DNA of 64,000 nucleotides from Chara braunii. Lineage: Eukaryota > Plantae > Charophyceae. The stretch covers positions 2,161,876 to 2,225,875 of the forward strand of contig BFEA01000022.1 in NCBI GenBank assembly GCA_003427395.1, in the 5' to 3' direction. The stretch's first letter is position 1; the number at the start of each line of letters is the position of its first letter. This document shows positions 31,801 to 55,989 of the stretch, in pieces. The position numbers were made by a program, and so were the translations under genes. The notes below the pieces were generated by a model. The model made no database searches. It was not told the origin of the DNA and saw only the letters and a list, made by a program, of their open reading frames with translations.

Positions 31801-33155
31801 TAGGAAATGCTCTGATTCTTCCATGGATGATCTCTTGCTCAAATCTTGTAATATAGTCTAGTGCTTTTCACTCACATGCTAGTAGGGGATGCTCCGATTT
31901 TTTCATGGATGCTCTCATGCTCAATACTTGTGATTTGGTCTAGTATAGATCTTGCTTTTCACTCACATGTTAGTAGGAGATGCTCCGATTCTTCCATGAA
32001 TGATTTCGTGCTCAAGAATTGTGTTTTGGAACTAGTCTAGCTTGTGTTTTTCACTCACATAGTACATGATGACATTCCATTTCAAACTTGGTTGCATTCA
32101 TGAGCTCTGATCATGTGTTTGAGCAAGTCTCACTCACATGCATGGCTCGACTCTCACAATATGACATCCCGTTTCAAACTTGGTTGCATTCGTGAGCCAT
32201 GAGCATGTGTTTGAGCAAGTCTCACTCATATACATGGCTCAACTCTCACATGATGACATTCCTGTTCAAACTTGGTTGCATTCGTGAGCCATGAGCATGT
32301 GTTTGAGCAAGTCTCGCTCACATATATGGCTTAACTCTTACATGACGATATTCCGTTTCATGCTTGGCTGAACTCATGAGCCATAAATATGTGTTTGAGA
32401 AAGTCTCACTCACATGCATGGCTCTACTCTCACATTGATGACATACCGGTTCACACTTGGTTGAGTTTTTCCTCATGTGCATTTATGTTCACTAGTTCAC
32501 ACCTCTCCTTGTCAAGTTCATGTGTGTTCTAGTATTCTGGTTCATACTTATTTGATCCTTCCTTCATGTGCATGTGACTCTCACTAGTTCAATCTTCTCA
32601 TTGTTAAGTTCGTGAGTGTTGCAGTGTTCCGGTTTGTACTTAGTTGATCTCTCCTCCGTGTGCATGTGTTTTTCATTGGTTCAATCTTCTCATTGTCAAG
32701 TTCGTGAGTGTTGTAGTGTTCCGGTTTATACTTAATTGATTTCTCCTTCATGTGCATGTCCCTCTCACTAGTTCAATCTTCACATTGTCTAGTTCGTGAG
32801 TGTTGCAGTGTTCCGGTTCATGCTTAGTTGATCTTTCCTCTATGTGCATGTGCTCTTCATTGGTTCAATCTTCTCATTGTCAAGTTCGTGAGTGTTGTAG
32901 TGTTCCGATTCATGCTTAATTGATCTTTCCTCCATGTGCATGTGCTTTCCGTTGGTTCAATCCTCTCGTTGTCAAGTTCGTAAGTATTGTAGTGTTCCGG
33001 TTCATACTTAGTTGATCTTTTCTTCGTATGCATATGTTTTTCGTTTGTTCAATCTCCACATTGTCAAGTTCGTGAGTGTTGTAGTGTTTCGGTTCATGCT
33101 TAGTTGATCTTTCCTCCATGTGCATGCGCTCTTCATTGGTTCCATCTTCTCATTG
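25842..33155 (+). repeat. 3' LTR of element A, truncated within satellite III
   Basis: Colinear with 5768-12949. Arrays: I ~30075-32050, II ~32050-32480, III ~32480-33155. Confidence 0.85.
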
Positions 33156-33589
33156 CCTTAGGGGCCGGCCCTGTTATCGACTCAGAGTGGACCGCTTTCT
33201 GGGGCGGGTACCATGTTGTTGCGATGGAGCCAGCACGACTTCTGAGTTCCGGGGTTCACTCGAGCGAGGACGAGGGGTATTCTAGACGACCTCCTAGGGG
33301 AATGAATAAAAGCATCTTCACGGAAGGACTTTAAGTTTTTGGTGCCTTGCGTAAAGAGGAATTGCCTTAGCACTCCCTTGGTGACCATTCTAGGAGCCAC
33401 TGACGTATGGGGAACTGGAGCCACAAGCAGCTCAGTTCGTGTCCTACTAGCCAAACGGAGTGTATTTAGATACTCCCAATGTGACCGGTCGTGCCATAAG
33501 AAGCACAGGCCAGAAGAAAGACAAATGTTTTAATAATAATCAGTAGACAAAAATTTTAACTTCATCACCTTTGTCCTTCCTTCTTTCAG

Positions 33590-34102
33590 ATGGCTGCGGG
33601 GACGACGGTCTGTTACCTTTTCCGCAATCGTGATGCAGCGACGGAACGGGTCGCGTCTCAAAGAATTAACGGAGAAAGATTAGAGAGAATAGGACGGCTC
33701 GTCTACAACCCTTATGAATTATACTCAGAGGAAGATGTTTTGCGGTTCTGGGATGGCAGTGCGCGAAATCCTCCTAGGCGACTTCTTTTCAGGTCAAGAA
33801 CCGGTCTGGAAATTCTTCACTACGAGTTCTCGCCACCATTGCCCGATCACGATTTCGCCAACATGAACTTAGTAGTGATGCAACCGTATGAGATAAACCC
33901 GCGAATGGATGAGATACATGAGATAAGGTAAACGTTCGTCCGCTCCGTAATTTGGTTGAATGAACGGCAGGGTCCTTTCTTTGGCATATATCATACAAGA
34001 CGGGTGCGGGCAAACAGGTTCATTGTTCTACGAGTTGAATTTTTCTCTGAGTATGCTTGGCAGAACGAGGAGGACGAACTCATGGAACGTTTACGCGACT
34101 AA
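33590..34102 (+). pseudogene. LTR cargo ORF-a (~170 codons, one internal TAA), unknown function
   Basis: MAAGTTVCYLFRNRD...; the frame stays open past TAA 33929-33931 (TFVRSVIWLNERQGPFFGIY...ERLRD*). Preceded by TTTAAC-polypyrimidine-CAG|ATG. Confidence 0.65.
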
Positions 34103-34125
34103 CGCAGTTTTGTTCTAACACGCAG

Positions 34126-34674
34126 ATGCCTAGAGCACGGCGAGACTTGACGACCCCGATGTACCTGCTTGTTCACGACACACACGAGGATGACCTTATT
34201 AAAGGAGCAGAGCAACTTTTGCGAGTTTGAGACGGTTCTCCTACTGAGTGGATCGGCTTCATCAGATTATTATACGGCGAGGGTTTTTTTCCCAATACTC
34301 GCGCGGATTTTCGGGCAAATACAGCCCGGACTCAGGATGAGTTTTTTGGATATACTTTGTATTTCCACCATGCGATCAATCTCCAATGTCTCTCCCGAGT
34401 CATTGTGAGTATTAAGATTATCTCGTCCGTCCGGCGTTTCGGTGTCGTCCGGATCCGGGATACAGAGGGCCAACACTTGTTTGGACTTAGTCGGCCTTTT
34501 CGGGTCATAGTGTGGAGACTAGCCTTACGGATGACCTCCCTCTATGGTACTCAAATCGTTAGAGTCATGCGAGGTGGGCAAGTGACAACCCTGGTATTCG
34601 ACGACAACGAGTGTGCGCGTTTGGATTTGCTGGAGGTAAAGGTGCACGGAGGACGACAGATTTACCAAGGTTAG
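34126..34674 (+). pseudogene. LTR cargo ORF-b (~182 codons, one internal TGA), unknown function
   Basis: MPRARRDLTTPMYLLVHD...V*DGSPTEWIGF... is in frame with ORF 34357-34674. Preceded by TTCTAACACGCAG|ATG. Confidence 0.65.
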
Positions 34675-35901
34675 ACGCCGCTTTCTGGAAATCTTATTCG
34701 GATTTCAGGAAACCCATTGCATAGATTAATCCCATCGAGGAAGCCATATAAATTTAAGGCTTCACGAGGTAATCTCAAAAACAAAAACAAAAACACTCCA
34801 TATAGTTAGAACCATCGGATGGATGGTATTCGGATTACCCCGATGATTTCACTATCATGCTTATGCATTGAGGGGTAATCGATCGCTTAAAAATAAGCTG
34901 AGTAAAGTGAAAAACGAACATCTGAAAAATATGCTAAGCGTAATAACGAGGATAAAGTAGTGGGAGACGGAACATTTTTGTGTGGAGTAACTTAGTGTTG
35001 GAGATGAATACTCCATCATTTTTGGAACAGAAAGAGTAATTATTGTTCAGGAGGACAAAGCGACCAGCAAAATTTCATTCGCACTTCCAAGTGGTTGTAT
35101 ATGGTGCGAAGCTGTGGTCGAACCAAGAGTTCAAACATCGACTAGGAACCTGACCACTTGTTGATCTGCATGGTAGCAGTGGTATTTACTTGCAAAAGTT
35201 ATTTATGACGAGCTTCAACAGTCATGATAGGAAGATCAGTCCTAGTTTGTTCTTCAATTAATAATCTTGGAATGACAATATAAACGTTCTGCAGTCATAC
35301 ACGTTGAAAAGAAGCACTTTGGCAGGTCAGCTCATCAAGTCAATGAATTAAATTTGCGTAATTTTTATTAAGCTATATGGATTCTTTTGTTTTGTTCGAT
35401 CGTTAGGGACTAGGATTGTATCTGAAAGCTTCACGCTTGGTTGAGATTGTCCTAGTCGACCGATGTATGCTTCGTACTCGGGAGATCGACGCCCCAGGAA
35501 ATGAACGGCGTTCGGGGTTACTCGGCGTTAACCAAACATTTTGTATACTGCAGCGAGACGAGCAAATGCCCTCGGCTGATCTACCTCTACGATTGCATTT
35601 AAAAACTTTCGCACGTGGGTCAGTAGCTCGGTAGGGATACGCCCCTAAGGGTGGAGACAGCCTCTTAGGGAAGCAAGCTTATGCCCCGCGAAAACCTATC
35701 CTGTCGTAGGAGACTGCAGGATGAATAGCTGGCGCACCCGGCTAGAGTGGTGAAGGAGCGATGCAACCACGTCCGTCTCGGCGACTCGCGAAATGTTATT
35801 CATCGTCCCTGAGTTGTCTCATGAAGTATGTTTTGTTGCTACTCCTGCGTGACATGGTCGGGAGGACCCTCGCACGCGCGAGGGCCGATGCGCTCAACGG
35901 G

Positions 35902-35919
35902 TGGCGTTGTTGCCGGGGA
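35902..35919 (+). other. Primer-binding site, tRNA-Asp type
   Basis: TGGCGTTGTTGCCGGGGA versus canonical TGGCGCCGTTGCCGGGGA (two C>T changes), 2 nt after the LTR end. Confidence 0.8.
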
Positions 35920-36105
35920 TAATGGCAAACTACCGTTGTCCCTAGCAGAACGACACTTGGGTGATTGATGGAGCGAAAAGTTGTTTTCTTTTTCTTGTTT
36001 AACCTCAGAAAAGTCAGTAATTTGATCCCAAAAGTATGAGATTTAATTTTACAGAAAGGTTGACTGATTTTTGTTGAATATGTTGTTGTGATTTTGTTAC
36101 TCAAG

Positions 36106-37500
36106 ATGTCTGATAACAACGACAATCAGGATGAGAGAAGAAATGATATTCGGGAAATCGCGAGGGTCATTCAGCATTCCCAGAAGGAGCAGATCCCGAA
36201 GGTTGACGTTCCTTTATTTGATAGTAACAACGTATCGGGATGGGCAAACAAGTTTGAACAGTTGGGGAGTTGCTGTGAATGGTCCAAAGAGAAGATGTTG
36301 CGAATGGTAAAAAGATACTACAAGGTCAAGTATAAGGAAGAGGTGGAGGAATTGGTATGAGGTTCGCGGGACTGGCCAGAGTTCAAAGGAAAGCTGCTAG
36401 AGAAGTATCAGTTGGGCGACCAACTGTTGGATTTAGCGGATTTAAGGAAGGTTAGTCGGCGGAACTTTGGTACGACAAAGCAGTTTCTTACTGAGTTCGA
36501 GCGGGTGGTGCGGTTAGTTCCTGACCTCCCAGACAAGGATCGTTGTCTTATCTTCCTGGACAATTTCACGGAAGTAGAACAGCGAAAGCTGGTGAAAGGG
36601 ATGCAAGGACGATATGACTGGCCGACGATTCGAGAGAACTTGCTGGCCGGAAATTTTGACCAGATCCTCTACCGACTGCTGAAACAGCAGAAGGAGGATC
36701 GGGAGAGGGTATACTTGGGAACGGATAAGGACAAGAAGGTCTACAAGACCTTATCAGACATGAAGGAGATGATGACCAACATGAAGGAGGAGCGACTAAA
36801 AATCCAAGTGATGATGGCCAAGGCAAAGACATGAAAGAGAAAAGGGAAGGAGCCAATTACTGAAGAACGTAGCAGTGAAAGTGACAGTGAGGAGGAAAAA
36901 GAACCCCCTGATCAAGGCTGAGAGGAAAGCTTTGAACCAGATACGAGGAGGGCAGGGTACTTCTCGTAAACGAGGGGAAAGTAGTAAGGATGAAGGAAAT
37001 GGAAACGGGGAGCGGCAAGTTGGTCAGGGGCAACAAAACCAAGGTCACCATGCTCAACCACAGGGTGGTCGAGGCCGTGGTAGAGGCCGCAAAAACGGTG
37101 GCGGACATGGGAACTGGCAGGACTATGTCTCCAAATATTGTGATATGAAGGAACACGTTATTCATTTCTGCCAGATCCTCGCCAAGGATGAGAAGGACCA
37201 GATCATTTTTACGACGATTCGGGGAGAAGTCTTTGATTTTGAAGGGAATCTTATCGATCAGACCATTGAAGGGGGGATGAGAAAAGAGGTTTTTCAACCG
37301 ATGGGCCGTTCTCTTCCGGCTACATTCCACTTAGCTTCTCCTGAAAAAGCAAGTCTTTTTGAATTGGAAGAGACAACGACTTCTTTGGAAATCAGTGACT
37401 GTGAGGAAAAAGAATTGGAGGAAAGGAAATCGGGCATGAGAAGTGACCAGAAAACTGGGCAAGTGTTGGGATTTCATTGTTTAGTTATGCATTGACATGG
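36106..37500 (+). pseudogene. gag: Gag of element B
   Basis: IPKVDVPLFDSNNVSGW gag-like N-terminus; RG-rich segment; degenerate zinc knuckle SKYCDMKEHVIHFC. Contains stops and frameshifts. Confidence 0.8.
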
Positions 37501-39131
37501 AAGAAGTTTGGCCCAACCTTCCAAATGTGTTCTTCTTTAGTGGCTGGGGAAACGAGGGTCAGGATGGGTCAGCACCTGCGGTCACTTCGGCGCCTGAAAC
37601 AACGCCGATGGCTCGGCCAATGGCGATATCCAAACCTTTGCTCAAGTGAGGACGCTAACTATTATGGTGCAGACGCGAAAAGGAAGGAAGACGTCACAAT
37701 CACAGCCTTCGCCAGGAGAAAGGAGCCTATTAAGGTAGAGGATGGAGAAGATGAAGAGGATGAAAGATTGTGTGTGGAATATGAACAGCAGGCGAACCAG
37801 AGGGCTATGGAGAGGAATTCGGAAAAGGGGAAGACTAAGGTCAAAGAAGAGGAGCCTCGCAAGAAAAAGAATGTATATACAATCCCGGTGGAGAAAGGGA
37901 TTGGTTTTGAGCAACTTGTGGACCTTATTTTGGAAAGTCAACGCGATTTGATTACTCTTAGGGAGATTTTGTTTGTTTCGCCAAAGCTCCGTGAGGAGTT
38001 TAAGCAGAGCAAGACTCGAAAGAAAGTCATGACAGTTAAGCTAAGTGAGATCATTCCTCCGGAGGCTAACTGGGCGCCTCCTGGAACAAAGATGGACTGG
38101 CGATGTGCAGCCACTGGTCTTATAAAAGTTCAAATCGGTCGTGGAGAGTTTTCTGCTCTTGTAGATGACGGGGCCGAGATGAATATTATGAGAGAGAAAC
38201 ATGCGATCGAGGCTGGAATACAGATCAATCGCAATGATTTTGGATTTTTGGTTGGAACCAGCAGTGCAACTCCATTTTGTTGTACAGCTAGTGGAGTAAT
38301 GGTCACGGTCGGGAAGGTCAAGGCGAGATCGTATTTTTATATTTTACCAAAGATGGAACACAAGGTGCTCTTGGGAAGATCATTTCAGTATCGCACGGAG
38401 AGCATAATCTTCAACAAACATGACAGTACCATGTTTGTGGTTTTGTGTGATCCGGTTTGCGGCTACTATGAAGTCGTGAGATGCGCGAATACCGGACCGG
38501 AAAATTCAAGGAACTGGCTAAATCCCGAGTCATATACCTTCTCGGAGTCAGAGAAGTTGAGGAGGGAGAAAGAGGCAATCGAAGAAGAAGGAGATCCTCA
38601 TGAGTTCTCATTGACATTGCCAGATATCTCGCAGACAGTCGATTTTGTATCAACCCATCCTGCAATTGATCCAAGCCTGGTATAGGCCCTGATGGAGGTT
38701 GTGGCCGACGAAGGGGGTGCGGGGACCATGCATCTCGTTTACCGACCAAATGATTCTGGTGTGGAGGAATCTCTGCCATCAGCCAGGCAAGAGTTTTTTT
38801 TAGAGGACGGAGGCTCAGCGTTGGGTCAAAAAGGAAGTATAAGAAAGTAGGCGAGAAGGTTCGGCCAATGCCAGTTCTGATCACTCAGGAAAAGAAGGTG
38901 TATTATAAGGAAGAACGTGAGTGGATCAGAACATTGAAGAAGAAATGTGAGAAAGGGTCGTGTCGGCTGACAGATGACAGGATCAAGGAGATGATCATTG
39001 GAGAGGATGACCTCCTCACTAAGGAGGAAACCCATTTTTTTTTCAGCGTTATGAAGAAGATTCATTTGGCTTATGTCTTTCATGATGATGCGCGTGGAAG
39101 GCTGGACGTCGATATGATTCTGATGATCCGG
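37477..39131 (+). pseudogene. pol: Aspartic protease and RT N-terminus of element B
   Basis: ALVDDGAEMNI and VLLGRSF motifs. The frame ...LDVDMILMIR is cut by insertion C. Confidence 0.85.
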
Positions 39132-41429
39132 TGTCGAGCGCATCGGCCCCCGCGCGAGCGAGGGCCCTCCCGGCCGCGTCACGTAGGAGAAACTTAGCCT
39201 TTTAACTTTTTAGAGACAACTCGGGGACAACACGATAACCCGTGCCGACCCCTCGCCGCTCTGGCCGAGTGCACCAGTTGTACATCCCACGGTCCCTACG
39301 ACAGGATAGGTTCACGTGGAGCACAACTTACCTTCCCTAAGGGGTTGTCACCACCCTTAGGGGCGTATCCCCACCGAGCTACCGACCCACATGCGAAAAC
39401 TTTTATAATGCAATTGCAGAAGTAAGTCGGCCGAGGGCGTTTGCTCATTCGCTGTAGCATAGGTACGCATGGTTAAACGCCAAAGTGGACCCGAACGTCG
39501 TCTGTCCCTGGGGCGCTAATCTCCCAGGAATTGGACCAACGTCGGTCAACTAGGACGTGATATTCCAAGCGTAAGGAAAACTGCGAGCGATCCTAGTCCC
39601 TTCTTTCAAAGACAATCGAAAGCTACTCAGACAAAAACTCATGTCAACGTAAGTTGACTTATTTTCTGAAATCGGTACAATCATGCATACTGCTCGTTTG
39701 GGCTGTCACGACTTTCGCCTTGATGAGATGCGTTGCCAAATTTTTTCATTCCACCCCATATCAACCGCTAGAAAAGAATGCAGACAATTCTCAATACTCA
39801 AGTAGAGCTAGGATGTCATTGCTTTAATGATGACTTCACTACTTCTCTAACTTTGGTGTGAATGCCATCTGCAATTAATCTGGCTACCACTATACAAGTC
39901 AGTACTCGACTTGAACAACCGAACACTAGATGCCCTATCAAGGTCAATGATCTACTTTTAAATTTCGTTGGTCGCTTTGTCCTCCTGGACAATAATTACT
40001 CTTTCTGTTTCACAAATGATGAAGTACCAGCTTTGGACATGAAGATATTCAAGGCAATACTCTATTAACATCTTCCCGTCAACTAGTCTGATCACCCCAG
40101 GTTTGCACTTCTTATGGTGCAACCCTATCCGCGAAGGTATTGCCTAGTCGCACTCCGTCCATAGCTAGTGATCGCACGAACTGGGCTTCTTATGGCGCCA
40201 ACTCCTCACTCATCTGTGGCTCATAAGACGGTCACTAGAAGGGTAAACTATAGCGGTTCTTCTTAACGTGAGCCGTCAAGAACTTAACGCCTTCCGTGAA
40301 TAGCACACGTCCATCCCCTAGGAGGTGGTCTGGGATACCCCTCGTCCTCGCCCGAGCGAGCCTCGGATCTCAGAAGTCGGGCTGGCTCCACCACGACAAC
40401 ATGGTATCCCCCCGCCTAAGCGGTCCACTCCGAGTCGTTAACAGGGTCGGCCCCTAAGGCAACGAACCCCCGCCTCAAATGGCTCCTAGGGAAAGGAAGT
40501 GCACTTACCACATCAGACGGTCACCCCTTTATCGCCTGACCTCAAGGCGAACCTAGACGAAGAAGGAGATCATAGAGAAGAAAAATATTCAAATGGAACG
40601 GCATGGATAGAGAGGGACATTCAGGAAAGAATGGGTAACCTCGGGAAAAACCTATGTCCGATTCACTTCTTCTCCTTTGTGTGATCGCTCCGTTTCTCGT
40701 CGTCTACTGTCTTCCCACCCCTTCAGCATACACATAAGTGAGTGACAACAAAAACAATCATCATCCCTTCGCTTTCGCTGCCATGATCAGATCTCTCCTT
40801 TTTTTTTCTTTTTTTTTTTTTCTTTTTTTTTTTCTTTTTCAGGCATTCGTCGACTTACCTGCACATCAGATCAGACAGACAAATTCAAAACCAACACAAT
40901 GCAAACCCATTCTCAAGTCAGACTCTCATTCACACGCGCATGCACACATCTCCTCTACCTTTTCAATGAACGTTCAAAGAACAGGGTCAAGCAAGTGTGG
41001 GTTCACACAGGCGTGAAGGGAACTGAGTCAGGATAACTGACCTTGCGTGACGTTGAACCAAAGATAGCAAACGGCCCACTCAAGAAAGCCGTATAAACCA
41101 TATTCTAAATGAGAAGATCGCCGCAGTAAGCTTTCAGAAAAGTGATCCACACCACTCCCTCAAGGATCGCTCACTGACACGCAATCCCCTCACTGCCTCA
41201 ACGTTGTCACGACTCGCGGCCAGTACCACTATGCCACTACTGTGTCGAAGCGTCACCACCGCAATATGCGGACAGCACAACGTCAACACCACCTCAAAAC
41301 ACACATCCTCTTAATGACACCCCTCAAAATTGTTGTCGCCGTCGCGAAGACCGGACAACATTTTAACACCAATGCTAAATAGTTGCTGCTGCCGCACAAT
41401 TCCGGCAGTGCTTCCGCGTCACCGCCAAA

Positions 41430-41745
41430 AAAGCACAGCCGCCGTGCTAAGCGGACAGCACCTCCCCTACACACTTCTCAAAAATGGATGCCGCCGCCGA
41501 AAAAGTCACACAGCGTTTCCCCTACACTCCTCCAAGCGCAGCTGCAATAGCCGTAATAGCCGCGCAACACCCCCCAACACAAAAAAGTTGCCGCCGTAAA
41601 AAACAGGCAGCATTTCCCCTATGCCACTTGCCGAAGACCTGCCGCCAATGTGCAAAACCGGCAGAGTTTCCCCTGCGCCGCCTGCCAAAACCCTACCGCC
41701 ACCGTGCAAAATGGGCGGAGTTTCCCCTGCGCCGCTTGCAGTCCT
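41430..41745. repeat. Degenerate ~54-bp tandem repeat in LTR C
   Basis: CCGCC..GTGCAAAA..GGCRGAGTTTCCCCTGCGCCGC units: 3 clear copies plus decayed ones. Confidence 0.7.
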
Positions 41746-42771
41746 CCGACACTCCTTCCTCCTCCTTGCTGAGATGGCAGCTATGGCTGTACTCCACAGC
41801 TATGGCCACCACTAGCAACTTCTTTCCCCTCACACTGCAGACCTCCCTCGCCGCCAACAGCTCCTCTCAGCAGCAACACTTACTTCTCAGCAGTCAGCCA
41901 ACATTCTCACAAGTGAGAGTCCAGAAACAATGCCAAGTATGCTTGCTGCTGGCTGGTCGCTGGCTGCCTTTATAGCCAGTAGAAGGGCTGAGGCAGCTGC
42001 TTTGCCTTAGCCGTTTCACGAATTAGGGTCTGGCCCTCGATCGGAATCACGATCAAGGGTCAGAAATACTGTTGTTCCTCGAAGGGAACCCAGTTCAGAC
42101 CACTGGGAATGCATCTGGCCTTCACCCACGGCCAGACGCAGCCAAGAAATGGTTGTACTCAGCCATTTTTTAGCAGACTGTTGAGACCAACAGTCTGTTG
42201 TCTATTCATAGTCCAGATGTTTCTAAACTTGCATCTGGACTGAGGCCGCGGCTAGATCCGCGGCCGTTTCCCCTTCTTTTTTTTTCCCAACTTCTTCTTT
42301 TCTTCTCCTTTCCTTTTTTTTCTACCCCCTCGTTTTTCTAAAGCAGGGGCAGCTCGTCGTTTGAAAAACGAACGAGCAAGTCCCCTCCCCCAAGTCATTT
42401 CATAGAGTCGAACAAGAGTCAAGCTCAACAGGGTCTTTTTTCCCACTGCCTCCACGCGTCCGTCCCCGGACGCAAACCGTGCCAGGTTCGAGCGCACTGC
42501 AAATGCTGCAGCCCGTTTCTAAAATCGAACAGGCGCAGCAAAATAAAACTTAAATAAAATAAATTTAAAAAAACAAAAACAAAAACAAAAACAAAAATAA
42601 ATAAAGAAGAAGATCGAAAACAAATGAAAGAAAAAAAATCAACTTACTTGTTTGTCGTCACGTCGCAATCTCCGTCAGGTAAGACACTCCTCTCCTCCTC
42701 CTCCTCCTTCTCTCTCTCTCCCTCTCTGCCTGAATACAGCCGCATTTGTGCGGCTGATTCGGTCGGGTTAA

Positions 42772-42828
42772 CCGACTGTCGAGGCTCAACCTTCTGATGA
42801 GTCGGTGGAAGCCCGACGAAACAATCGG
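42772..42828 (+). ncRNA. Type III hammerhead ribozyme motif
   Basis: CCGACUGUC^GAGG-CUCAA-CCUU-CUGAUGA-GUCGG-UGGAAGC-CCGAC-GAA-ACAAUCGG. Complete catalytic core, GUC cleavage triplet and three helices, with one C-A mismatch in helix III. Confidence 0.8.
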
Positions 42829-44423
42829 GCACAGCCACACCCGTTTGTCTGAAATGAACGGGTGCTTAGNNNNNNNNNNNNNNNNNNNNNNNNNNNNNNN
42901 NNNNNNNNNNNNNNNNNNNNNNNNNNNNNNNNNNNNNNNNNNNNNAAAAAAAAAAAAAAAAAAAAGAGGAGAGAAAAAAGTAGAAAAAAAAACGAACTCA
43001 CCTCGTGGATGGTCAATCGCCTGTTTTCAGGGCGTTAGCACCCTCTGGGCCGAGGTCTCACTAGCAAAAAAAAGGATAGGATCGAGATCCTGAATTTGGA
43101 TGTATCTTACGCAGAGATGCAGAAAAGCAGTTCAACCTCGATTCCCTGTACATCTCCATAATCTCGTTCAGATTTAGGTATTCGATCCAATCCTCTTTGC
43201 TAGTGGAGCCACGCCCTTGGGGACTTCACGTCCCTTTCACTTCTGACAGGGTCAGGTGGCGCTTTGTTTACAGTTAGATTAGGTTGTCTTTTCTTTGTGT
43301 TTTTTTTTNTTTNTTTNTTCGTTTTGTTTTTTTTTTTTATCCCGTTCGTTCGTATTCCATCGCCATGCATCAAAAAGGAAAGAATAAAAAAAATCAAAAA
43401 AAAAAACTAATAAAATCTAAGGAAGAAAACCAAGAACCCGAAACTCCTACCTTGCTTGACAGGTCGCCCGTTTTCACGGGCACCTGCACTATTCGTGGGG
43501 ACTATAAGTCCCCATTACTTCCTATCGCACCACATGGCGCCTTAGTTATAGTTAGATTTTTTTTTTCCGTTGGCTTATACCAACGGCCAGTTCCCAGCAC
43601 ACTGCGTGGCTTTTCAGCCACGCCCCCCCCATGCCACGGACCCAAGTTCGATCCCCGTGGGATCGAAAGAAAAAAAAAAATTGGGGTCCCTCCTCGATTT
43701 ATGTGTGTCATCCCTGCGCAATGGCCATGCTCATCTCTCCGCGCGGTTGTTCCTGACCGTGCTATCTCAGCGATCGCATGACCGAAAACGGCCGCGCCGA
43801 AAAGGCTAGGCCGCTCCAAAAGGAGCTTTGCCCATTAGGTCCACATGTTAGGTTTGATCATGGTATCTGTCGGGTGAAAGTTTGGCACTATAACCTACTG
43901 GGCTAGCTCCTATCACAACAATGATAAGAGCAACTCTTCTATATGAAGAGCTTGTCCATCCAGTTAACACCTTGCAGCGGCCTTGCAGGCTCAGCCTGCC
44001 TGCGGCCCTCCATGCTTGGCTGCCCGTGTGGTCTCGGCACCGGCCTATCAACCCCCTGGCTCGGTGTCAGCCCCCGTGATCCTAAGATTAAAACCCTTCT
44101 TTTTATTCACCCCTGCGATGCGGCTCTATACCCGGCGCACCCCTATTTTTTGCCTACTTTAGTCTTTCCATGACCGCGCACCACTGCGGCCTTGTCGGAA
44201 CCGCAGACGACCGGTCGTACCACCGACCCATGTCGTTTCGAACAAACGTCGATGACGTCTCACGTCAACGACGTCAGGCTTTAGGTCTCTCAGTTATAGG
44301 GTTGGTCTGAATAACTTTGGCAACGTCAACCTCATCAAGTCTCCCAATCCAAAAGGTCGGGCAGCGTCTAACCTTGAAAAACTCGGGCAGAAACCCTCAC
44401 AGGGGTTTCTGTCCCGACACCGG

Positions 44424-47421
44424 ATCCATACGGTACCGCATCAGCCATGGAATGTGAAGGGTCCACGATATCTGAATCCGGACGATCACCGGAAAGTGGT
44501 TGATTATCTTGATGGTAAGGTTCGGACCAAAGTGGTTGACTATTCGTATGGGCCATATGCGTCTCCTTGGTTCTGCTTTATCAAGCCAAACGATGTTTTG
44601 CGATGGGTCCAGGACCTGCAAAAATTGAATTCTGTAACAGTCCGAGATGCGGGCGGAGTTCCGAACGCCGACCAACTCTCGGAATCTTATGCAGGCAGGC
44701 CCATCATCACCCTAATTGATTTATATTCAGGATATGATCAATTCCCGCTGTACACAGCGGATCAACCTATGACGGCGATGCATACGCCTCGGGGACTGCT
44801 TCATATATGCGCGGCTCAACAGGGTTGGAATAATGTCGTGGCAATTGTGCAGAGATATATGATGAGAGTCATGCAGCCACTTTGTCCGGACGTGACCTCT
44901 CCATATATCGATGATTTGGCCATCTCAGGACCTCGAGTCAAGGATGAGACTGAAGTGTTATCCGGCATTCGAAAGTTCGTGTGGGAACACGTCAGAAATG
45001 TGGAAAAGGTTCTAAGGAAACTAAAGGAATATTACCTCACTGCTAGTGGGGTTAAATCAAGGCATGGTATGAGGAAGGCGGTAGTACTGGGGTTCCTTTG
45101 TGATGAAAAGGGTCATCGGCCAGATGCCAAAAATACGAATAAGATCTTGGAGTGGCCGACTCCCTTCAGATCTATTACCGACGTTCGAAGCTTCCTTGAA
45201 ACTTGCAGATTTTGGCGTATTTTTATCCGTAGGTTCGCAGCAAGAGTGGAACACTTGCGGAAATTGGTACTCAAGAATCAGATTTGGGAATGGCGACCGA
45301 GGCAGCAAGCGGTCGTTGAGGATATTAAAGCTGAATTTTGAGAAGGCGGCCTGATTTTGGGAATTCCTTATTTTGATGATGCTGAAGGCCGTCCTTTCAT
45401 CATCGAAACTGATGCAGGTCCTACCGCTTTGGGAGGATTTTTTATTCAAAAGAATGAGGAAGGACGAGAACGGTCATTGAGATTCGAGAGCAGAACTCTG
45501 AATATTGTTGAGCGGAACTACTCTCGGTTCAAGAAGGAAACTCTCGTTGTGCTTCCCTGTCTGCGTATTTTTAGGAATTATGTATTTGGCAGGCGGTTCA
45601 ATCTACGAGTCAATCCTACGGCTCTGACTCAATCGCTGAAGAACTATTCTCCTTCCGATCCAACCATTGCTCGATGGCTGACATACATGCGATGTTCAAT
45701 TTTGAAATTGAACGTATTTCAGGCACTCAGAATCGTGTAGATGGGTTGAGTCGCATTGATTGGGACTCGTCGACGGATCAGGCTGAGGATTCAGTCCCTG
45801 TGGATGAGTTTCTGGAGAGAGAAGAGTCGCAATTAAATATCAACTCATATATTTACTTGGCGGATGCAGTTGCTCAACATGGGAAGACTATTTGGAATAC
45901 TCCTAGCTTCCATCATGGGCGACCTGAGTTAGTGATGGGGGAGCCATTCATTGAGGAGGACCCATGGGGTGAAAGGACATCAAAGCAAATGATGAGCTTG
46001 GTTTAATCCGATGAAATCGAGCTTATCAATGAGTCGCTGGCGATAAAGTATGGGCACAAGAAAGTTGATAAGACATACATGATCGCTGGGGAAATGTCTT
46101 TTCTTGTGAACTCTTTGATTCATGAAGACCGTCTGAGAATGATGAATGAAGAAGCAGAAGGCAGTGAGATCAGAGAAGTTTTCAGGGAAGGAGAGTATGA
46201 TGGGGAGTATAAGTTGATGGGAATGTGTTTGGATGGTGAGTTGAGGGAAAATGACGTGGATCCAGTTGTTAGCCAAAAGAGCAAGGATTTTGTTGTACGA
46301 TATGGTCATCTTCTTAAGAAGTCTGACGATGGTATTCTGAAGAGAGTGGTATGTGGGGTTGCGCGGCAACTTCATGTGATTGCAGCTTTGCATGATGGGG
46401 TCGCAGGCGGACATAGATCAGCACGAGTTACTTTGAAAAGATTCAACATCTTTATTTTTGGGAAGGAATGAGCAAGATGGTAAATGACTTCTGTAAATCT
46501 TGTCTTCATTGCCAAAGGCGATCTAATCTGCGTTTTGTTGAACCTCTTAATCCACGCTATGTGGCTGAGCCGGGAGCAGTAGTACACCTTGATCTATTGG
46601 TTATGCCACCTGGGATTAAAAGATACAGATATATCTTCAATGCAAGGGATAATCTGACTGGGTTCGTTGATGGTTGTGCCATTGGCGTGCGTAGTGGCAT
46701 GTTTTAGCATTGTGCATCAAAGAATATTATCTTTGGTACCCGTTTGTCCGGGAGTTTGTCATGGATCAAGGTGGTGAGTTTCGGGCTGGGGAAGTGCAGG
46801 CGCTTTTGAAAAGACTTGGAGTAAGCTTTAGTTATACTACAAGGGCACATCCTCAGGCAAATGCGCCGGTTGAGCGTGGACATGTCACTCTAACAAATTT
46901 GTTAGCAAAATAGTGTGCAGATGATCCTTCAAGATGACCAATATATCTGAGGACGGCATTCTTTGTTGAGAATGTCACCATAAGGCGGATAACTGGATAC
47001 GCTCCAGTCACGTTGTGGTTTGGGCGGCACGCAACTTTTTCGATCGAAAGTTTTCTGACCACTTGGCGAAAGCAGGATGTGGAAACGAAGCTTTCAACGG
47101 AAGAGTTGTTGGAATTGAGGGCAAAACAGGTGATGGTGAGCGAGGAAAGAGTTGAGGAGGTCGCTGCAGGCGGACAAGGAAATATGGGATAAGAGGCCAT
47201 GTGTTCGTAAGAAACCTTTGGAAGTCGGGGATATTGTGCTTCTTTATGATTCGTCCTTGGAAAAACAATGGTCGCGAAAATTGGACAGTCGATGGTTGGG
47301 ACCCTATCGTATTGTTAAGAGATTTGAGCATGGGGCTTATGAGATTGTAGAGATGGATGGGGCTCGAGGTAGAAATTGGGTGTTGGGATCGCATTTGAGA
47401 AAGTTTATTCCAAGGACTTAA
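44424..47421 (+). pseudogene. pol: RT, RNase H and integrase of element B
   Basis: RT: DLYSGYDQ, YIDD. RH: IETDAG, NRVDGLSR. IN: HDGVAGGH..CLHC, VHLDL, MDQGGEF, VERGH, WLGPYRI. Scattered stops and frameshifts; no chromodomain seen. Confidence 0.92.
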
Positions 47422-47997
47422 ACCACCAGTACCCCCGAAGCAGTCTTCCCAAACCTTGTTGTTGGCAATCTACCGAACCTCTTCGTCTTATGGGAACGCA
47501 ATTTGCAAGTGGTCGTGATATGGGGCTGACTGGTCTTCAATGCTGGCGACCGGTACTTCTGTGCTGGTTATTTCAGTTTTGTTTCCTCCCTTGTTTGTTT
47601 GTTTTTTGTTTTTTTCCTTCTTCATTTTTTTATTCTACGTTTCTTTTTTCCCCATAGGGTGGTTGCTCCTGCCAGAGGAGCAGGCGAAGGCACGGATGGC
47701 AGACTCGTAGTCAGAGAGTCGTAAATCACTCTATTGCCAGAAGTCATTATTCTTCAGCAAGGTCACGCTGATCTTCTCTGTATCCTTCCATGTTCCAGTG
47801 TAAAATGCATTCCCATTTTCGTAATCTGGACAAGAGTTCAACGTGGGCCATTGCAATTCTTGTGGGATGAACGCTCCAACACTTGACACCGTCAGCAGCA
47901 ACCGCAAAAGATAAATCATGGCAGTGGATCTTTCTTTTTTTTGGACAATTTCTCAATTAAAAAAAAAAACTAGAGAAAAACAAAAGGGTCACTCTCC

Positions 47998-48284
47998 AAC
48001 ATGCACAAAAGACAAAAACCGTAGCAATGTATCTTTCCGTGTTCTAGCGGAAGATTCACTCTCGTTTTGCACATGTAAAGAGTAGTGGAGCGAGGTCTTG
48101 TATTTCCATGTCCCAAGCGAATCTGACGGCGTAGGATGAGGCGTGAGCACAGCGTTGTGCACCTCGCTGCACTGCTCTCGACATGCACAAAAGACAAAAA
48201 TCTTGGGGTTGTATCTTTCCATAATATAGCGTAGATTCACTCTCGTTTTGCACATTTCGAGAGTAGTGCAGCGAGGCCCTGTAT
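47998..48284. repeat. ~105-bp direct repeat x2, 182-bp spacing
   Basis: ACATGCACAAAAGACAAAAA...AGATTCACTCTCGTTTTGCACAT occurs twice. Confidence 0.85.
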
Positions 48285-50100
48285 CTGTTTGTTTTTTTCT
48301 TGAGTGAGTGTCTCTGTTTCCAAAACTTGCGCCGCTCCAAGAGGAACAGCCCCCCGCTCGCGCCGTTTTCAGAGGGAGAATTTTTTTTTCGTATTCTCAT
48401 TTTTTTTATTTTATTTTTTTTAATTCTTTGGTCGTCCGTTTTCGTTTTCAAAACGGGCGACCACCACACATGCCTCGAGGCTGTACTGAGCCTCTACCAG
48501 GCCTGCCCACGTCCTCCATGAATTCAAGAGGCGACAAAAGTTTGGTTATACAGGGTACTGATGGTTTAATAAAGAGGTTACGGTTAGTATAAACTTTTGA
48601 TGATAAAGCATTTGTCTTTCTTCTTTTTATTCTTTTAGGATCTCTAATGGCTGACTAGTTCCAAAGTCAGACAAGGGAATTGTAACTTTGAACTTTTGGG
48701 GATTGGGATTTAATTTTGGGGTCTATCGTTCCATATTTTGTAATAATTAATAATTTCTACGACTTATGTTCGTAGAATTGTGTTGCGGGTTTTGAATGGA
48801 TTGAAAATCTTTCGACTTTTTTTATAAGTGCTATCACTTTTTTTTCGATATAATGTGATGCAATGCGAATTTGTGGATATTTTTAGACTTGAATGTTATG
48901 GAACTCTCTGTAAAAATGTGTGTTATTTGATGTATATTCTCGTTCAAAAAAGTTATAGGAAAATGATATGTAATTTGCATTATATGGCTTGTAGGACAGC
49001 TAGTGTGTTATTCGTAAAGGCATGTACTGCAATTATTTATCATAGCCTAAAACCGTCGTAATGTTTTTAGTTATCATGTTATGATGAGTCCTGATGCAGT
49101 GAGTTCCGTAGATGGTAGTGAGACCTGCGCCGGAACTTGTTCCTGGTCCAAAGTGGGATGTTGTCACTTTTCCTTTTAGAGGGTGGTTACACTATCATTG
49201 AAAGGGAGGAAGGTATTATTGTGATTGTTGGAATCTTGCTTATGAGGGTGACGACTGCCGCTCGTCATGGGGAAAGGAGTGGTCACCTTGGCCTTGTGAC
49301 GAGTGGAGTCGCTTCACCTCTATGGTCGGGTCTGACCAGCCTAGGTCATAGAGAAGGGGTAGTTCAACCTCACAGGTACGGGACTAGCAAACACATGACA
49401 CCGGAATTAGAGGGAAGGTGGTGAGGCTCGAGTCTAAAGCGGGGCTTGACGTCGAGATGTTATCCCTTGAGGATTACACCACTCCTCGACGCATATTACA
49501 AGGCATGCAGGAAAAGTATCATGTGTGATAACTCGTAATTGGAGTGGGATACAAAACCTGGACAAGGACTTTCGATGAAATTGTTTCTCTCATGAATGGT
49601 TGGTTCAGATATTGTCTGGGCCGCCCAAGAGGTTATTTATTTTGAAAGACCCGTCAGGGGGTTAAACCTAACATTTTTTTTAGATAAATGAATATATTAG
49701 CCAACTGGGGTTTAGAAGGTTAGCCGGAAGCTTTTTCGGTACCATTCTACGAGACTAAATGATGTTTAGAATTGCTGTCAGTGGGATGATGATGGGACCA
49801 TTTAGACAAAGATCTTTGAATATTTTAGTGATTCCAGAATTTGATCCGATATAAAAATTCAGGTTTTGCTGAAAGGTTTGCCAGAGGCTATATCTGGTAC
49901 CATTCCAATCAAGGGTGATTGAATTTAGACCACCGAGGAAATGACTCGGATTTTTTGTTGTAAGTTTCGGCTTATTTTCGATTGAAAGAAATTTTATTGC
50001 CATTTTTCCGGAAGAGTTCCGTAAGAATCCAGAGAGCCCTATATCATTGAATAATATAGGGTGAAGAACGGGGACGTCGTTCAATGGGGCCTGGGAATGT

Positions 50101-51180
50101 TGTTGGGGCAAAAACCCTGACAAGGGTATTTGCCGGGGTTTTTTTTCAACGTCAGATGTTGTCTGACCTTTTTTTTGAATTGAATTGAAGACTTGATGAG
50201 ACCGGCGTTTGCCAAAAAGTTTATTCAGACCTTACCTGTGACTGAGAGACTAAAATTTTTTTAGACTTTAGTCTGGACGCGTGTGGCGTCCGAGGGTAAC
50301 GGATGTGAACGACAATGCTTCATTTTTGTTGAAGTCACAAGAACGTGCGGACAAGGGAATGCAAAAATTAAAACTATGCTACCTATAATAATGTCGCGCG
50401 ACTGTTAAGCCGCGCAATTCTGGATCTAGGTAGGCAAAAAAAAGCAGGTGCGCCAGGTATGGGGCCGCGACGCGGTGAAAGTAGGGGATTTTTTTTGTTA
50501 TTGAACCACGGGGTTACTCCATACGGAGGGCCTGATGTCGGTTTATGGCCAGTCGTGGGCCGCTGAGCCAAGCCCCAAAGAAGAGTCGCCTGCCGAGTCG
50601 ACAGGCAAATGTCGAGGCGTACCCGGTTAGATGGTCGACCAAGCCACGGTCACGCGGCTAACCGGTATAGCTAGGCTAAAGGCAGGCTTGAAGGAGGAGG
50701 CTGAGCTCTTCATATAGAAGAACACTTCCTATCACTATTGTGATAGAAGCTAGCCCAGTAGGATATGACGCCAAACTTTGCCCAGCAGGTATAGGGATCA
50801 AACTCGGCTATGTGCAATTTACCGGGCTAGCTCCTTTTGGAGTTGACCATTGTTATACCACTCGTGCACCAGCCGTCGATCTGGAGGATCGCGCGATCCA
50901 TATCGGCCGTGTTGAGATTGGCATGGCCCTGGGAAAGGATGACACACATAAATTGATAAATGGTATAAAAAAAAAAAATTGATCCCATTCGGATCGAACT
51001 CAGGTCTGTATTACAATAGTTCATGGGGGGTTCCATGAGCTGAAAGTGGTCGTTGGATAAGCCAACGAAAATTTAAGCCAAAAGTAAAAAAAAAATAAAA
51101 AATAAAAAAAAATTCACTAAAATTAAGTACCGTGAAGTGACTGGGGCTTTTCATCTGCAGTACACCAAACAGTCGCCCGT
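50101..51180 (+). repeat. 5' portion of the 3' LTR of element B
   Basis: TGTTGGGGCAAAAACCC...GACTTGATGAG...TTATTCAGACC aligns with C's start (reverse complement from 44419). 50704-50850 matches the reverse complement of 43810-43953. Confidence 0.85.
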
Positions 51181-51181
51181 T

Positions 51182-52830
51182 TGACCAGTATCTTGTACGG
51201 GGCAATAAGCAAGGAAATAGGGCGCCAGTTGTGGATGTCAGTTTTATCTCCCTTTTTGTACAAAAATGTAATTACGCCTTGTTGCATGCCCTTTGTGAGT
51301 GTGCCCCCCGTCAAAATATTGTTATAAATATCCGTGAGTGCGGGGCCCAATTGATGCCATAGTAGCAAGTACACTTACACTGGTAACCCATCTAGACCAA
51401 GGCATTTTCCTACTGCCATTTGTTTTGCTCCGTGATGTAGCTCTTCAGATGTGAGGGGTCTGTCTAGGTTTGGACGACCCTCTATTGGTAGTCTAGCGCT
51501 TGACTTTTCCCAGAAGTGGGATGTGTCTCTGAGGTTGGTCAGGAAGGATCCTTGTGGTCGTCTGGTTATGAGGATGTCTTGAAAGTAGGCAAGGGCATGT
51601 TCGCACATGCCAAGGGTATATGATCTCGATTCAATTTCGTGGATGAATGGATGTGAAAGTTCTCTGATTAGAGGCTTGTTTTTTTTAGTAATAGTCTTTT
51701 GAAGGTGTCTCGGTTAAGTCTGTCATTTGCGGTAATACCTTTCTATTGGAGTCATTCTTTTCATTGTTCTTGTTGTTGGATTTGCAATGTGTCAAGTGTG
51801 GACAATGTTTTTTTTCTCTGGTGTGTCCAATAAGCATCAGAGATAGGGTTCCTTCCAAAGTTTTTTTCTGCTTCTTTTACCCTATCAAACCACTTCTGTA
51901 CCAATTGATGTTTTGTGGTGGCCTTTATTCTTGAGAAAACGTCTAGTGAGCTTTTCAGCATGTTGATGCCCTTCTCCACCCAGTCTCTTAGGGAGAAGAA
52001 GTATTGTTTGGCTTTTTGTCATTTCTCCAAGTGTTTTTGAGCCCATGCTACTATGTTCTTGTCTTTAAGATGATCCGTGTTGAGCCTGAAGGGGGGCATT
52101 GCCACGTGAAGTGGGTTGTCAAGATCGAAGGAGGCTGATAGGGGATTGTGATATGGGACTTAGGATACCCTTACTTCGATCCATAGGCATCTGTCCCATG
52201 GGAGACCTCTTAACAAGAAGAAGTCCAAGCGGCGGCGAACTAGCGGAGTTTGGGATTTGTGCCACGTGAAGCTTTGTGCATGTGGGTGGAAAACTTTGAA
52301 TGCATCTATGAGATTGTGGGTTTCCATCAAGGATTGAAGGAAGCGACTGTCTGCGCTTATCGGCTCAAAGTTTGGGAAGTCTGAACCGGGATTGGGTGTT
52401 GTGTTCCAATCTGCAGCTATGACCAGGTTAGTGGAGTCTGACACGAATGAAGGCAATGCCGCTAGGAATTTTAGTCTTTCGTTATAAATGATTGGGACAT
52501 AAATGGACATAACTATCCATTCCTCGTTATTTAGTTCAAACTTGACCCATTCCCACCGACCCCAAATGTCACACATCAATCAATGACGGTGATGTCCAGA
52601 TCTTGTGAAATAGGATTCATGTTTCACCTCTTGTTCCCTGCGCAGGGGACCATTGTTGAGGTCCTCTCCACCACTTTCTAGCCTCTACTGTTCGTTCCTC
52701 GTTTAGTTTGGTTTCTTGTGAACACATGATGTGAATTTTGTTGTCATACATTCATGACTTGAGACGTTCTCACTTTCTTCTTTTACTTGTGTCGCATAGA
52801 CCACAAACATTCCAACAATCGATGTTCAAT
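51182..52830 (-). pseudogene. LINE ORF2: APE endonuclease plus RT N-terminal region
   Basis: WNVCG, QETKL, IYVP, IAADWN, FTW, RRLDFFL; GKCLGLDGLP; KKGDKTDIHNWRPISLL..YKILVK; then truncated. Confidence 0.88.
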
Positions 52831-52938
52831 TTGTTTTTAAGAGGCATTTATTGCCTCTACCCCACCGGTTGCGTGCTGGATCCGGTTCATTCTCTGCTTG
52901 TGAGACTTCTGTGAGTGTTTCTGTTTCTCTGTGATCTA

Positions 52939-54942: not shown

Positions 54943-55989
54943 GTTCTAGGTATGAAGTTTACGGCCGAGGCGGTCTCTATGCAAGGTGTGTTAGCAAGGT
55001 AAGGGGTTAGTCTAGATTAAGTCTTATGTGGTGGTATTATTAGTCTGTGGTGTGAGAGGATACGTTACTATTGAAGGTGGAGAGTATCCAGGTTCGTGCG
55101 TTTTACTCTGGTTGGCAGCGAAATGGTTGAACGTGACGTCCCAAGTGTTGAGTATTCAGATTATAGGAATGGGGGGAGGGGGTATTTAGTGGTGGTGAGT
55201 AGGGTGATTGTTGTTTGTTGTGAAGGGGTATGATGTGATGTGGTTCTGTCGGGATGTTTGGTGATGTGGTCCCGTTAGGGTGCTTAAGAGGGTAGAGGTT
55301 TAGAAGGCGGATTATTGCTTATTGTGTTTGGGGGTGGGGTGAGGAGGTGGGTGAAAGGTGTTATAGGGGTTGTGTTCGGACAACACGTAGATGGGATTGA
55401 TATATGATGTGGTGATATAACGTGCGGGGGGGGAGGGGGGGGGGGGAGGATCGAAGGGTCATGGGGTGTAGTAGAGGGATTTCGAAGGGATTGGCGAGGA
55501 GGTGTATGGGGGGAACGTGGAACAGGCACAATTGGGATTGGGATCGGTGCCCAAAAAGTGAGGTGGGATTATCATATCGAAGGCCTGAGGAGTGGTATTG
55601 GTAGTGAAGGGATACAGTATGCAAGGCGATTGGAAGAAGTGTGTTGGGTGTGGGATGGGGCGTTGTGGGAGTGGTGAAGGGGTTTTGGGGTATGGGGGGG
55701 AGAGATCAGAGATCGGAGAGAAGGAAGAAGAACAGAGGAAGTAAGGAGGGTGGGGACGAGAGAGTTTTCAAGTCTACCGCAAATTTTTGCATTTTACTAA
55801 GATTAGGTATCGAGGGTCAGGTTGTTGTAGCGGCCAACGACAGATGGTAGTGCGATGGCATACATGATGGCAATGGTCAGTAGTGAGAAGGATAAATTTG
55901 TTGGTCGGTGTTATCAGTAAGATCGTGGCGGAATGAAGTACCTAGCCACAATATCAGTGATTGTTAAGGCTGATAATATAAACCAAGTG

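Follow-up and report, generated by a model that had tools for sequence, protein, structure and literature searches.

The question raised by this locus is what a hammerhead ribozyme is doing inside the long terminal repeat (LTR) of a giant Gypsy-type retrotransposon, on the strand opposite to that of the element. The locus lies in a stretch of 64,000 nucleotides of the Chara braunii genome (contig BFEA01000022.1, positions 2,161,876 to 2,225,875 of the forward strand), which is referred to as the window and from whose first letter all coordinates are counted. An earlier reading of the letters alone, the original prediction, described a type III hammerhead antisense to a 5.3-kb LTR, and proposed that it cleaves antisense transcripts or, under the control of a conformational switch, releases a defined or circular RNA. 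Here we show that the motif is a genuine type III hammerhead with a complete core and that it represents a very large family that is spread over the genome and occurs next to several different flanks, a feature that the original prediction had missed.

Results

A complete type III hammerhead

Helix I of the motif is formed by 42781-84 and 42790-93 (pairs G-U, A-U, G-C and G-C), helix II by five Watson-Crick pairs between 42801-05 and 42813-17, and helix III by 42772-79 with 42821-28, in which the sole mismatch is C.A (42776/42824). The sequence bears out every coordinate that had been given for the core, the triplet and the helices (Table 1), as well as the single mismatch in helix III. The features that define the type III class are present, namely CUGANGA, GAAA, a UH triplet, helices I and II closed by loops and an open helix III. 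In a search of 801 bases around the locus the Rfam model Hammerhead_3 (RF00008) matches 42773-42827 with 40.5 bits (E 3e-7), and the match has an E value of 2.4e-5 when the whole window is run against all Rfam families. This Infernal-type check of the predicted class covers the full model (positions 1-54 of 54), though the window copy scores below the gathering score of 48.5 and there were 0 matches at that cut-off. The sub-gathering score weakens the Rfam membership of the window copy but leaves its structural class unaffected. A descriptor search of both strands of the window returned this hammerhead as its single type III match and found no type I hammerhead motif in the 64 kb. Among 600 Markov-shuffled window strands none reached helices of at least 4/4/3 bp, and 15 reached 3/3/3. 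Both hairpins that had been proposed to flank the ribozyme are contained in the minimum free energy (MFE) fold of 42732-42869 (z -6.05, 0 of 200 shuffles). A protein search with the reading frame that spans the motif gave no match.

Table 1. Features of the ribozyme locus, its host elements and the captured RNA pieces, in window coordinates.
Feature	Position	Strand	Basis and remarks
Type III hammerhead ribozyme	42772..42828	+	RF00008 match, pair list, family conservation footprint; antisense to LTR, LTR nt ~1593-1647
GUC triplet	42778..42780	+	Sequence, Rfam alignment; predicted cut between 42780/42781
Core CUGAUGA	42794..42800	+	Sequence
Core GAAA	42818..42821	+	Sequence
5' flanking hairpin	42732..42760	+	MFE fold; confined to the subfamily
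3' flanking hairpin	42838..42864	+	MFE fold; confined to the subfamily
Alternative rod	42762..42817	+	Pairs 42762-69 with 42810-17 and 42771-77 with 42800-06; includes hairpin 42762-42776; predicted to shut the ribozyme
Run of 76 N	42870..42945		Masks the sequence directly after the 3' hairpin
Solo LTR, 5,288 bp, TG...CA	39132..44419	-	Inserted inverted in pol of Gypsy element B
TATA-like box TATAAAG, candidate LTR promoter	41968..41974	-	Motif scan; ~800 bp from ribozyme; putative function
Candidate splice-donor-like GTAAG, then CT-rich tract	42679..42685	+	Ribozyme strand
Candidate splice-donor-like GTGAG, then T-rich tract	42995..43001	-	LTR-sense strand, facing the ribozyme from the opposite side
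Decayed Ty3/Gypsy host element B	33150..51100	+	Pfam PR, RVT_1, RT_RNaseH, Integrase_H2C2, SH3_Tf2-1
Captured ~60-nt eukaryotic large subunit (LSU) rRNA fragment	42380..42444	-	LTR sense; RF02543, model position 2400 onward, E 0.0012
U6 snRNA 3' half	43676..43741	-	LTR sense; RF00026, 34.8 bits, E 2.8e-7

The host LTR and element B

The ribozyme sits in a solo LTR bounded by a CCGG target duplication (39128-39131 and 44420-44423); the empty insertion site reads MIRIHT in the homologue P0001, which continues straight across. The first ~860 nt of the solo LTR match the start of the 3' LTR of element B (67-70% alike), and its last ~1,330 nt match the end of B's 5' LTR (64-74% alike). Because the solo LTR is homologous to both LTR ends of B, its sense strand is the minus strand and the ribozyme is antisense to it. 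Both the giant size of the LTR and the antisense placement stand as originally described. The ribozyme is in the likely U3 region, since it lies upstream of the TATA-like box, and the ribozyme module is placed between two inward-facing donor-like sites that are typical of this LTR.

Element B comprises a 5' LTR remnant (33150-35898), a primer-binding-site-like stretch (35902-35919), gag, protease, reverse transcriptase (RT), RNase H and integrase. Its RT is split by the solo LTR, its 3' LTR starts at ~50098 and is cut off near 51100, and its LTR remnants end before the ribozyme position. Chara braunii proteins account for 10 of the 12 homologues named for the neighbouring RT. The locus has the features of a Ty3/Gypsy solo LTR: TG...CA ends, a short duplication and homology to the LTRs that flank a protease-RT-RNase H-integrase element. 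Beyond the Gypsy type of the LTR, the prediction that the family of the ribozyme, that of element B, encodes a gag-pol of its own is not supported, as the solo LTR and B's LTRs are only 64-74% identical (26-36% diverged), and no coding region of its own or full-length member was seen. On this comparison the solo LTR is assigned to a family related to B's, rather than to B's own. B's 5' LTR also contains an apparent spliced multi-exon coding region (33590-34670, plus strand; open reading frames (ORFs) 33560-33931 and 34231-34674, with GT..AG boundaries), which is absent from the solo LTR and has no Pfam match.

A very large family in Chara DNA

Public Chara braunii sequencing runs were compared with the window copy at 80% likeness (6 different runs of 24 listed; X2 and X3 are DNA runs, and X5, X6 and X7 are oligo-dT, that is poly(A), RNA runs). 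In the two DNA runs 816 and 766 contigs map to 140 bases. The summed depth on the core is ~298,000 in X3 and ~209,000 in X2, compared with 220-330 and 95-200, respectively, on the 5' hairpin and ~126 and ~52 on the 3' hairpin. The core is thereby 1,028 (5') and 2,367 (3') times deeper than the flanks in X3, and 1,324 and 4,033 times deeper in X2; a ribozyme some 1,000 times deeper than its flanks, with hundreds of variants, is the new finding of this study. It should be emphasized that summed contig depth is not copy number: single-copy pieces are ~12-18 deep in X3, which puts the core at 17,000-25,000 times single-copy depth, or at 530-800 times under the largest possible overlap of 31-letter words. 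The family thus comprises hundreds of copies at the least, and probably thousands. A ribosomal DNA piece had a depth (296,915) similar to that of the family core, and the subfamily that shares the flanks of the window copy amounts to about 7-25 copies. Contigs with 6-15 differing letters link the ribozyme to the same hairpins in all eight listed non-identical pieces of X3 (one of them near-identical) and in four of eight of X2. In other copies T-runs or CT-runs occur ~15-25 nt past helix III, and the 5' neighbours are varied, some of them TA-rich, as read from loose ends whose agreement is mostly 0.5-0.6.

Pattern scans of viral, metagenome and genome contig sets revealed no Chara copies (0 matches in the genome contigs). 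They returned 20 loci, 4 in viral and 16 in metagenome contigs, that are identical to the Chara motif in the core and in the arms of helix II but have other flanks. Several share loop II with the commonest Chara variant, and in most of them the core is followed by a short helix III, which is the arrangement of type I or II motifs; from their flanks these loci are read as probable prokaryote or phage hammerheads. Relatives of the RT numbered 0 in the viral contigs.

Conservation and covariation of the fold

The conservation footprint across the family (42770-42836) extends only a few bases beyond the limits of helix III. Within it loop II varies in 57-86% of the depth and loop I in 34-78% (42808, 60% and 26%; 42811, 57%; 42789, 34%), while helix II varies in 1.7-2.0% and G12 (42818) in 1.2% of DNA depth; no variant falls on the CUGAUGA positions among the best 40 of the 45 rows at 4% or more. 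Among related copies the hammerhead is conserved to a much higher degree than the sequence on either side, the comparison on which the original prediction had staked the motif.

Variation in the stems keeps the pairing, as judged from per-site tables rather than a full alignment. The A to G change at 42782 (57%) and the C to T change at 42826 (30%) both retain pairing, as G.U, and 42824 is a G, pairing with C42776, in 87% of the family, so that the C.A mismatch is absent from most copies. The pair 42773/42827 is C-G in the window copy and A-U in most copies (42827 is T in 86%; the 5' A is taken from loose ends). The depth that keeps G at 42827 (366 in X3, 209 in X2) is close to that of the flank-sharing subfamily (126-326 and 52-200), and the two-sided, compensatory change therefore appears to have arisen in this lineage.

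State of the window copy

The window copy departs from most of its relatives at several positions of functional importance, among them 42785, 42793, 42812 and 42824. The first position of loop 1 is U in 78% of the family depth and C in the window copy; this U may have a role in the tertiary contact between loops 1 and 2. The available part of PMC6155905 names, for this loop contact, only a conserved reverse Hoogsteen pair. Five strands of the GUCGG/CCGAC type in the window copy permit the alternative rod. The hammerhead fold is computed to lie 13.0-13.7 kcal/mol above the ensemble in its context, where it makes up ~1e-9 of the ensemble, and 5.9 kcal/mol above it for the minimal 57-mer, in a model that leaves tertiary contacts outside. 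The window copy is worn and likely inactive.

Family RNA

Reads of the family were present in all three poly(A) runs (1,008 of 8.9 million records in X5, across a 1,470-base stretch, 2,438 of 16.7 million in X6 and 1,543 of 16.2 million in X7). Nearly all fall on the ribozyme alone and are less than 95% alike to the window copy, with two reads in X6 and none in X7 at 95-99%, and none in any run at 99%. The first mate lies on the minus strand in ~63% of the reads, which corresponds to ribozyme polarity if the libraries are of the dUTP type; this polarity is provisional, as the strand control, an rRNA piece, ran 94% one way in X6 and the opposite way in X5 on ~10 reads. Family copies are transcribed on both strands.

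Relation to known hammerheads

The papers cited here by PMC number are represented by the parts of their text that were available, and what is said of them extends to those parts. Similar to the LTR retrozymes of angiosperms (PMC4918200), the Chara locus combines a type III hammerhead in an LTR, a 4-bp target duplication and a Ty3/Gypsy link, and solo LTRs with one ribozyme also occur among retrozymes. In contrast, the Chara LTR measures 5,288 bp and not 300-400 bp, its ribozyme is antisense to the LTR whereas that of retrozymes has the transcribed polarity, and there is one ribozyme in 64 kb rather than two that are separated by 600-1,000 nt, with a short non-coding centre between them (PMC4918200). 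The likeness of retrozyme LTRs to Gypsy elements is confined to short boxes at the ends, whereas the Chara LTR is 64-74% like the LTRs of a gag-pol element; and the highest count in the retrozyme census, from which Chara is absent, is 152 per genome, compared with at least ~500 copies here (PMC4918200). The Chara locus, by the size of its LTR, its polarity and the lack of a pair, is not an LTR retrozyme.

Hammerheads have been described in Penelope-like elements (PLEs) of the same genus (Chlamys-2/-3/-5_cBra and PLE-X1_cBra; PMC8557442), which resemble the window family in their high copy number, microsatellite-adjacent insertions and helix I arms. These are type I with a helix III of 2-3 bp, however, whereas the window motif, of type III, has a helix III that is long and open. 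The window family was not found in the available part of the published Chara PLE consensus set (PMC8557442), which was searched by short exact words across eight families, where line breaks could hide a match. By its type, the window motif is not one of the published Chara PLE hammerheads.

The motif shares its complete core, three helices, type III topology and short loops 1 and 2 with the viroid and satellite hammerheads of RF00008. Arabidopsis has two genomic type III motifs, one antisense to the end of an ORF (PMC7761336). Unlike both, the Chara motif scores below the Rfam cut-off, has hundreds to thousands of genomic copies and is predicted to misfold in the window copy. The carriage of structured RNA fragments by an LTR, here of U6 and LSU rRNA besides the ribozyme, recalls Cassandra, Helenus and Ajax, but these elements are short and non-autonomous and use 5S or tRNA promoters, and for them the available text of PMC10886601 names no ribozyme or snRNA. 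Ribozymes have been reported in R2, PLEs, Terminons, short interspersed nuclear elements and retrozymes, and none is named for coding Gypsy LTRs in what was available of PMC7761336, PMC6765202 and PMC6155905. No report of type III hammerheads in Chara was found in the literature searched, in which PMC8557442 was the only paper to mention hammerheads along with Chara braunii; outside its scope lay bioRxiv supplements and subscription papers, among them the paper on the Chara genome. The available parts of PMC10085705, PMC10886601, PMC13570524 and PMC11630846 hold nothing on the window family.

Discussion

The explanation that we tentatively favour is that the locus is an antisense type III hammerhead in the likely U3 of a Chara Gypsy-type LTR subfamily, and a worn copy of a standing giant-LTR module that cuts antisense RNA. 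The LTR promoter, putatively the TATA-like box ending at 41974 on the minus strand, would also fire backwards into U3, and the resulting RNA would reach the hammerhead in its active polarity within ~0.8 kb and be cut at the GUC. The cut would yield a 5' piece that is not polyadenylated and a 3' piece that is not capped, both of which would decay, and would thus shorten the antisense RNA able to pair with the element's own RNA. Strand transfer of LTR elements requires the 3' R repeat. Were the hammerhead to lie in sense in U3, it would cleave the genomic RNA before this repeat is reached, so that the opposite orientation could not persist. The rest of the LTR would have diverged below the 80% cut, leaving the ribozyme alone to show the full family depth; related LTRs in the window are only 64-74% alike, and LTR relatives would therefore be missed at 80%. 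Cleavage of antisense RNA appears to be the likeliest function. In favour of this explanation are the depth of the family on the core, the contrast between variable loops and constant stems, the stem changes that keep pairs, the apparent origin of the two-sided change in this lineage, the linkage of the ribozyme to the same hairpins in diverged contigs and the lack of a target duplication or tail around the module. The motif, its place and orientation, the size of the family and the conservation of the fold are observed, whereas the carriers of the other copies, the antisense transcription and the cutting are inferred.

A number of observations weigh against this explanation. In 1.47 kb of this LTR the deepest block other than the core (13,224 at 42220) falls ~23-fold short of it, other copies show at least three 5' and at least four 3' flank classes unlike this LTR, and neither LTR of the related giant element A in the window has a hammerhead motif. 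The same LTR holds passive-looking captures of similar size (rRNA and U6). Reads were recruited by likeness to the window copy, so the conservation of the core is partly inflated; the contrast between loops and stems suffers less from this bias, since both are read from one set of short alignments. An antisense transcript of the window subfamily was not seen in the poly(A) runs (reads 99% alike, 0 of 2,438 and 0 of 1,543; flanks empty), and read ends did not pile up at the cut site in X5, X6 or X7, poly(A) libraries being a poor test of cleavage. Left-running loose ends (1,421 of 2,438 in X6 and 936 of 1,543 in X7, among the classes shown) are nearly as frequent as right-running ones (1,706 and 1,019), and most poly(A) molecules of the family are therefore uncut at the site. 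Variants of G12 were not enriched among reads of ribozyme polarity (3.3% versus 7.5% in X6 and 2.6% versus 4.0% in X7). On the side of cleavage, the loose ends show GUC at the triplet in the two DNA runs, as against GUU or AUU in poly(A) RNA (mixtures, agreement 0.5-0.6), a weak hint that the surviving poly(A) RNA is enriched in slower-cutting copies, which the comparison of G12 variants did not support.

A close rival, only slightly less likely, is that the copies instead form a separate small mobile element, LTR-retrozyme-like or mobilized by Penelope elements, which excises its own RNA and a piece of which was captured by an ancestor of the LTR and is now a passenger, found antisense for no other reason than that the LTR element would not survive the sense orientation. 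The depth of the core relative to the other LTR blocks, the uptake of 60-70-nt rRNA and U6 pieces by the same LTR and the predicted shut state of the window copy all favour a capture, as do the several unrelated flank classes, some of which lie beside (TA)n or (CT)n runs, the reported targets of the Chara Chlamys elements (PMC8557442 supplement). Helix I has arms similar to those of the Chlamys-2/-5_cBra hammerheads (PMC8557442), and retrozyme hammerheads are of type III (PMC4918200). The published Chara PLE hammerheads, however, belong to type I, their helix III being minimal and their helix II different in sequence, and 12 of 13 short probe words were absent from the available PLE supplement, the remaining one matching an unrelated record. 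The two-sided change in helix III tracks the LTR subfamily. The module shows no visible target duplication or tail, its T-run and microsatellite flanks are closer in composition to giant LTRs than to a compact structured retrozyme, and one short tandem joint, in one contig, was all that was found.

Returning to the antisense module in giant LTRs, a further reading extends it to a clade of protein-coding giant Chara Gypsy elements in which a selected antisense hammerhead, present in thousands of LTRs, terminates divergent transcription; we regard this as rather unlikely.

The original prediction also envisaged a regulated switch, in which hairpin 42762-42776 sequesters helix III and the ribozyme releases a defined antisense or circular RNA. 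This hairpin is present, as are the two that flank the ribozyme, the fold of the region is much more stable than that of its shuffles, and family RNA occurs on both strands, much of it in ribozyme polarity under the dUTP assumption. The 5' strand of the switch hairpin (42761-42770), however, varies in 22-51% of the subfamily depth in X3, at 6 of its first 10 positions, and there is therefore no conserved switch; the predicted competitor of the hammerhead is the longer rod, which leaves the hammerhead fold a negligible share of the ensemble. Release of a defined or circular RNA likewise fails to find support, as a single hammerhead in the window defines no monomer, no reads derive from the subfamily flanks and ends do not pile up in the three poly(A) runs. 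We consider a regulated switch improbable.

It is equally hard to credit that the family is a dead relic, made up of once-active ribozymes that were amplified passively in recent repeat bursts and are functionless in any carrier. The passage of most poly(A) reads across the uncut site, the decay of the window copy and the inflation of core conservation by seed-based read recruitment are what such a relic would present. Loop and stem variation differs 30-fold within the same short alignments, however, and helix changes that keep the pairs across diverged flank classes are not expected from passive amplification. Finally, a chance match, to which the sub-gathering score might point, is refuted by the shuffled strands, the window-wide E value and the coincidence of the family footprint with the limits of the ribozyme.

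Other features of the window

The LSU rRNA fragment in the solo LTR shows a spike in read depth and rRNA-like loose ends. A relation to the 28S target of the Selaginella element PLE-X was considered and rejected, as that target lies near nt 1,121-1,126 and the fragment begins at model position 2,400. The U6 3' half also occurs in B's 3' LTR (50914-50974, plus strand), at the same place in LTRs that are only ~67% alike. Next to it in the solo LTR, the other strand holds a stretch that resembles a tRNA B-box (43560-43660), in which neither ARAGORN nor Rfam finds a tRNA, and a weaker U6-like match lies at 47712-47819 (E 0.011).

Element A (5767-33155, plus strand) is a giant Gypsy-type element whose LTRs, of 7-8.5 kb, contain 91-bp and 92-bp tandem repeat arrays. 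Its 3' LTR is truncated at 33155, where it abuts the 5' LTR remnant of B, and the element is inserted just upstream of a 306-aa ORF (4417-5337, minus strand). This ORF has no Pfam match, and its C-terminal part resembles by eye ORF1 of the Chara Chlamys-2/-5 PLEs. A compact multi-hairpin region at 2285-2405 (z -3.7 on the plus and -3.5 on the minus strand) repeats the layout of the ribozyme locus, with a donor-like site, CT tract, hairpins, A tract and opposite donor-like site, and lacks a hammerhead core; a tRNA-like stretch follows at ~2560-2610. An nhmmer likeness between the ribozyme region and 2229-2367 (E 2e-5) was discarded because it rests on the CT-rich tract, without which the best score is 25 against a shuffle median of 26. 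A decayed element resembling a long interspersed nuclear element (51120-55000, minus strand), with endonuclease- and RT-like frames by eye and no Pfam match, truncates B's 3' LTR, and a 361-bp unit is tandemly triplicated at 56884-57946.

Significance

Genomic type III hammerheads were previously known mainly from angiosperm retrozymes, with up to ~150 copies per genome, and horizontal transfer has been suggested as the origin of the LTRs that bear them (PMC7761336). A structurally conserved family in a streptophyte alga, at least partly housed in giant Gypsy LTRs, offers a vertical source for such ribozymes together with a large natural alignment. The value of the finding resides in the family and not in the window copy, which is itself predicted to be idle. 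If a clade of giant Gypsy elements does carry the antisense hammerhead, it would be the first ribozyme to form a standard part of autonomous LTR elements, and it would be a candidate source of the angiosperm retrozyme ribozyme, through a turn to the sense orientation in an LTR that had become much shorter. The Chara family makes a role of ribozymes in limiting the antisense RNA of retrotransposons directly testable.

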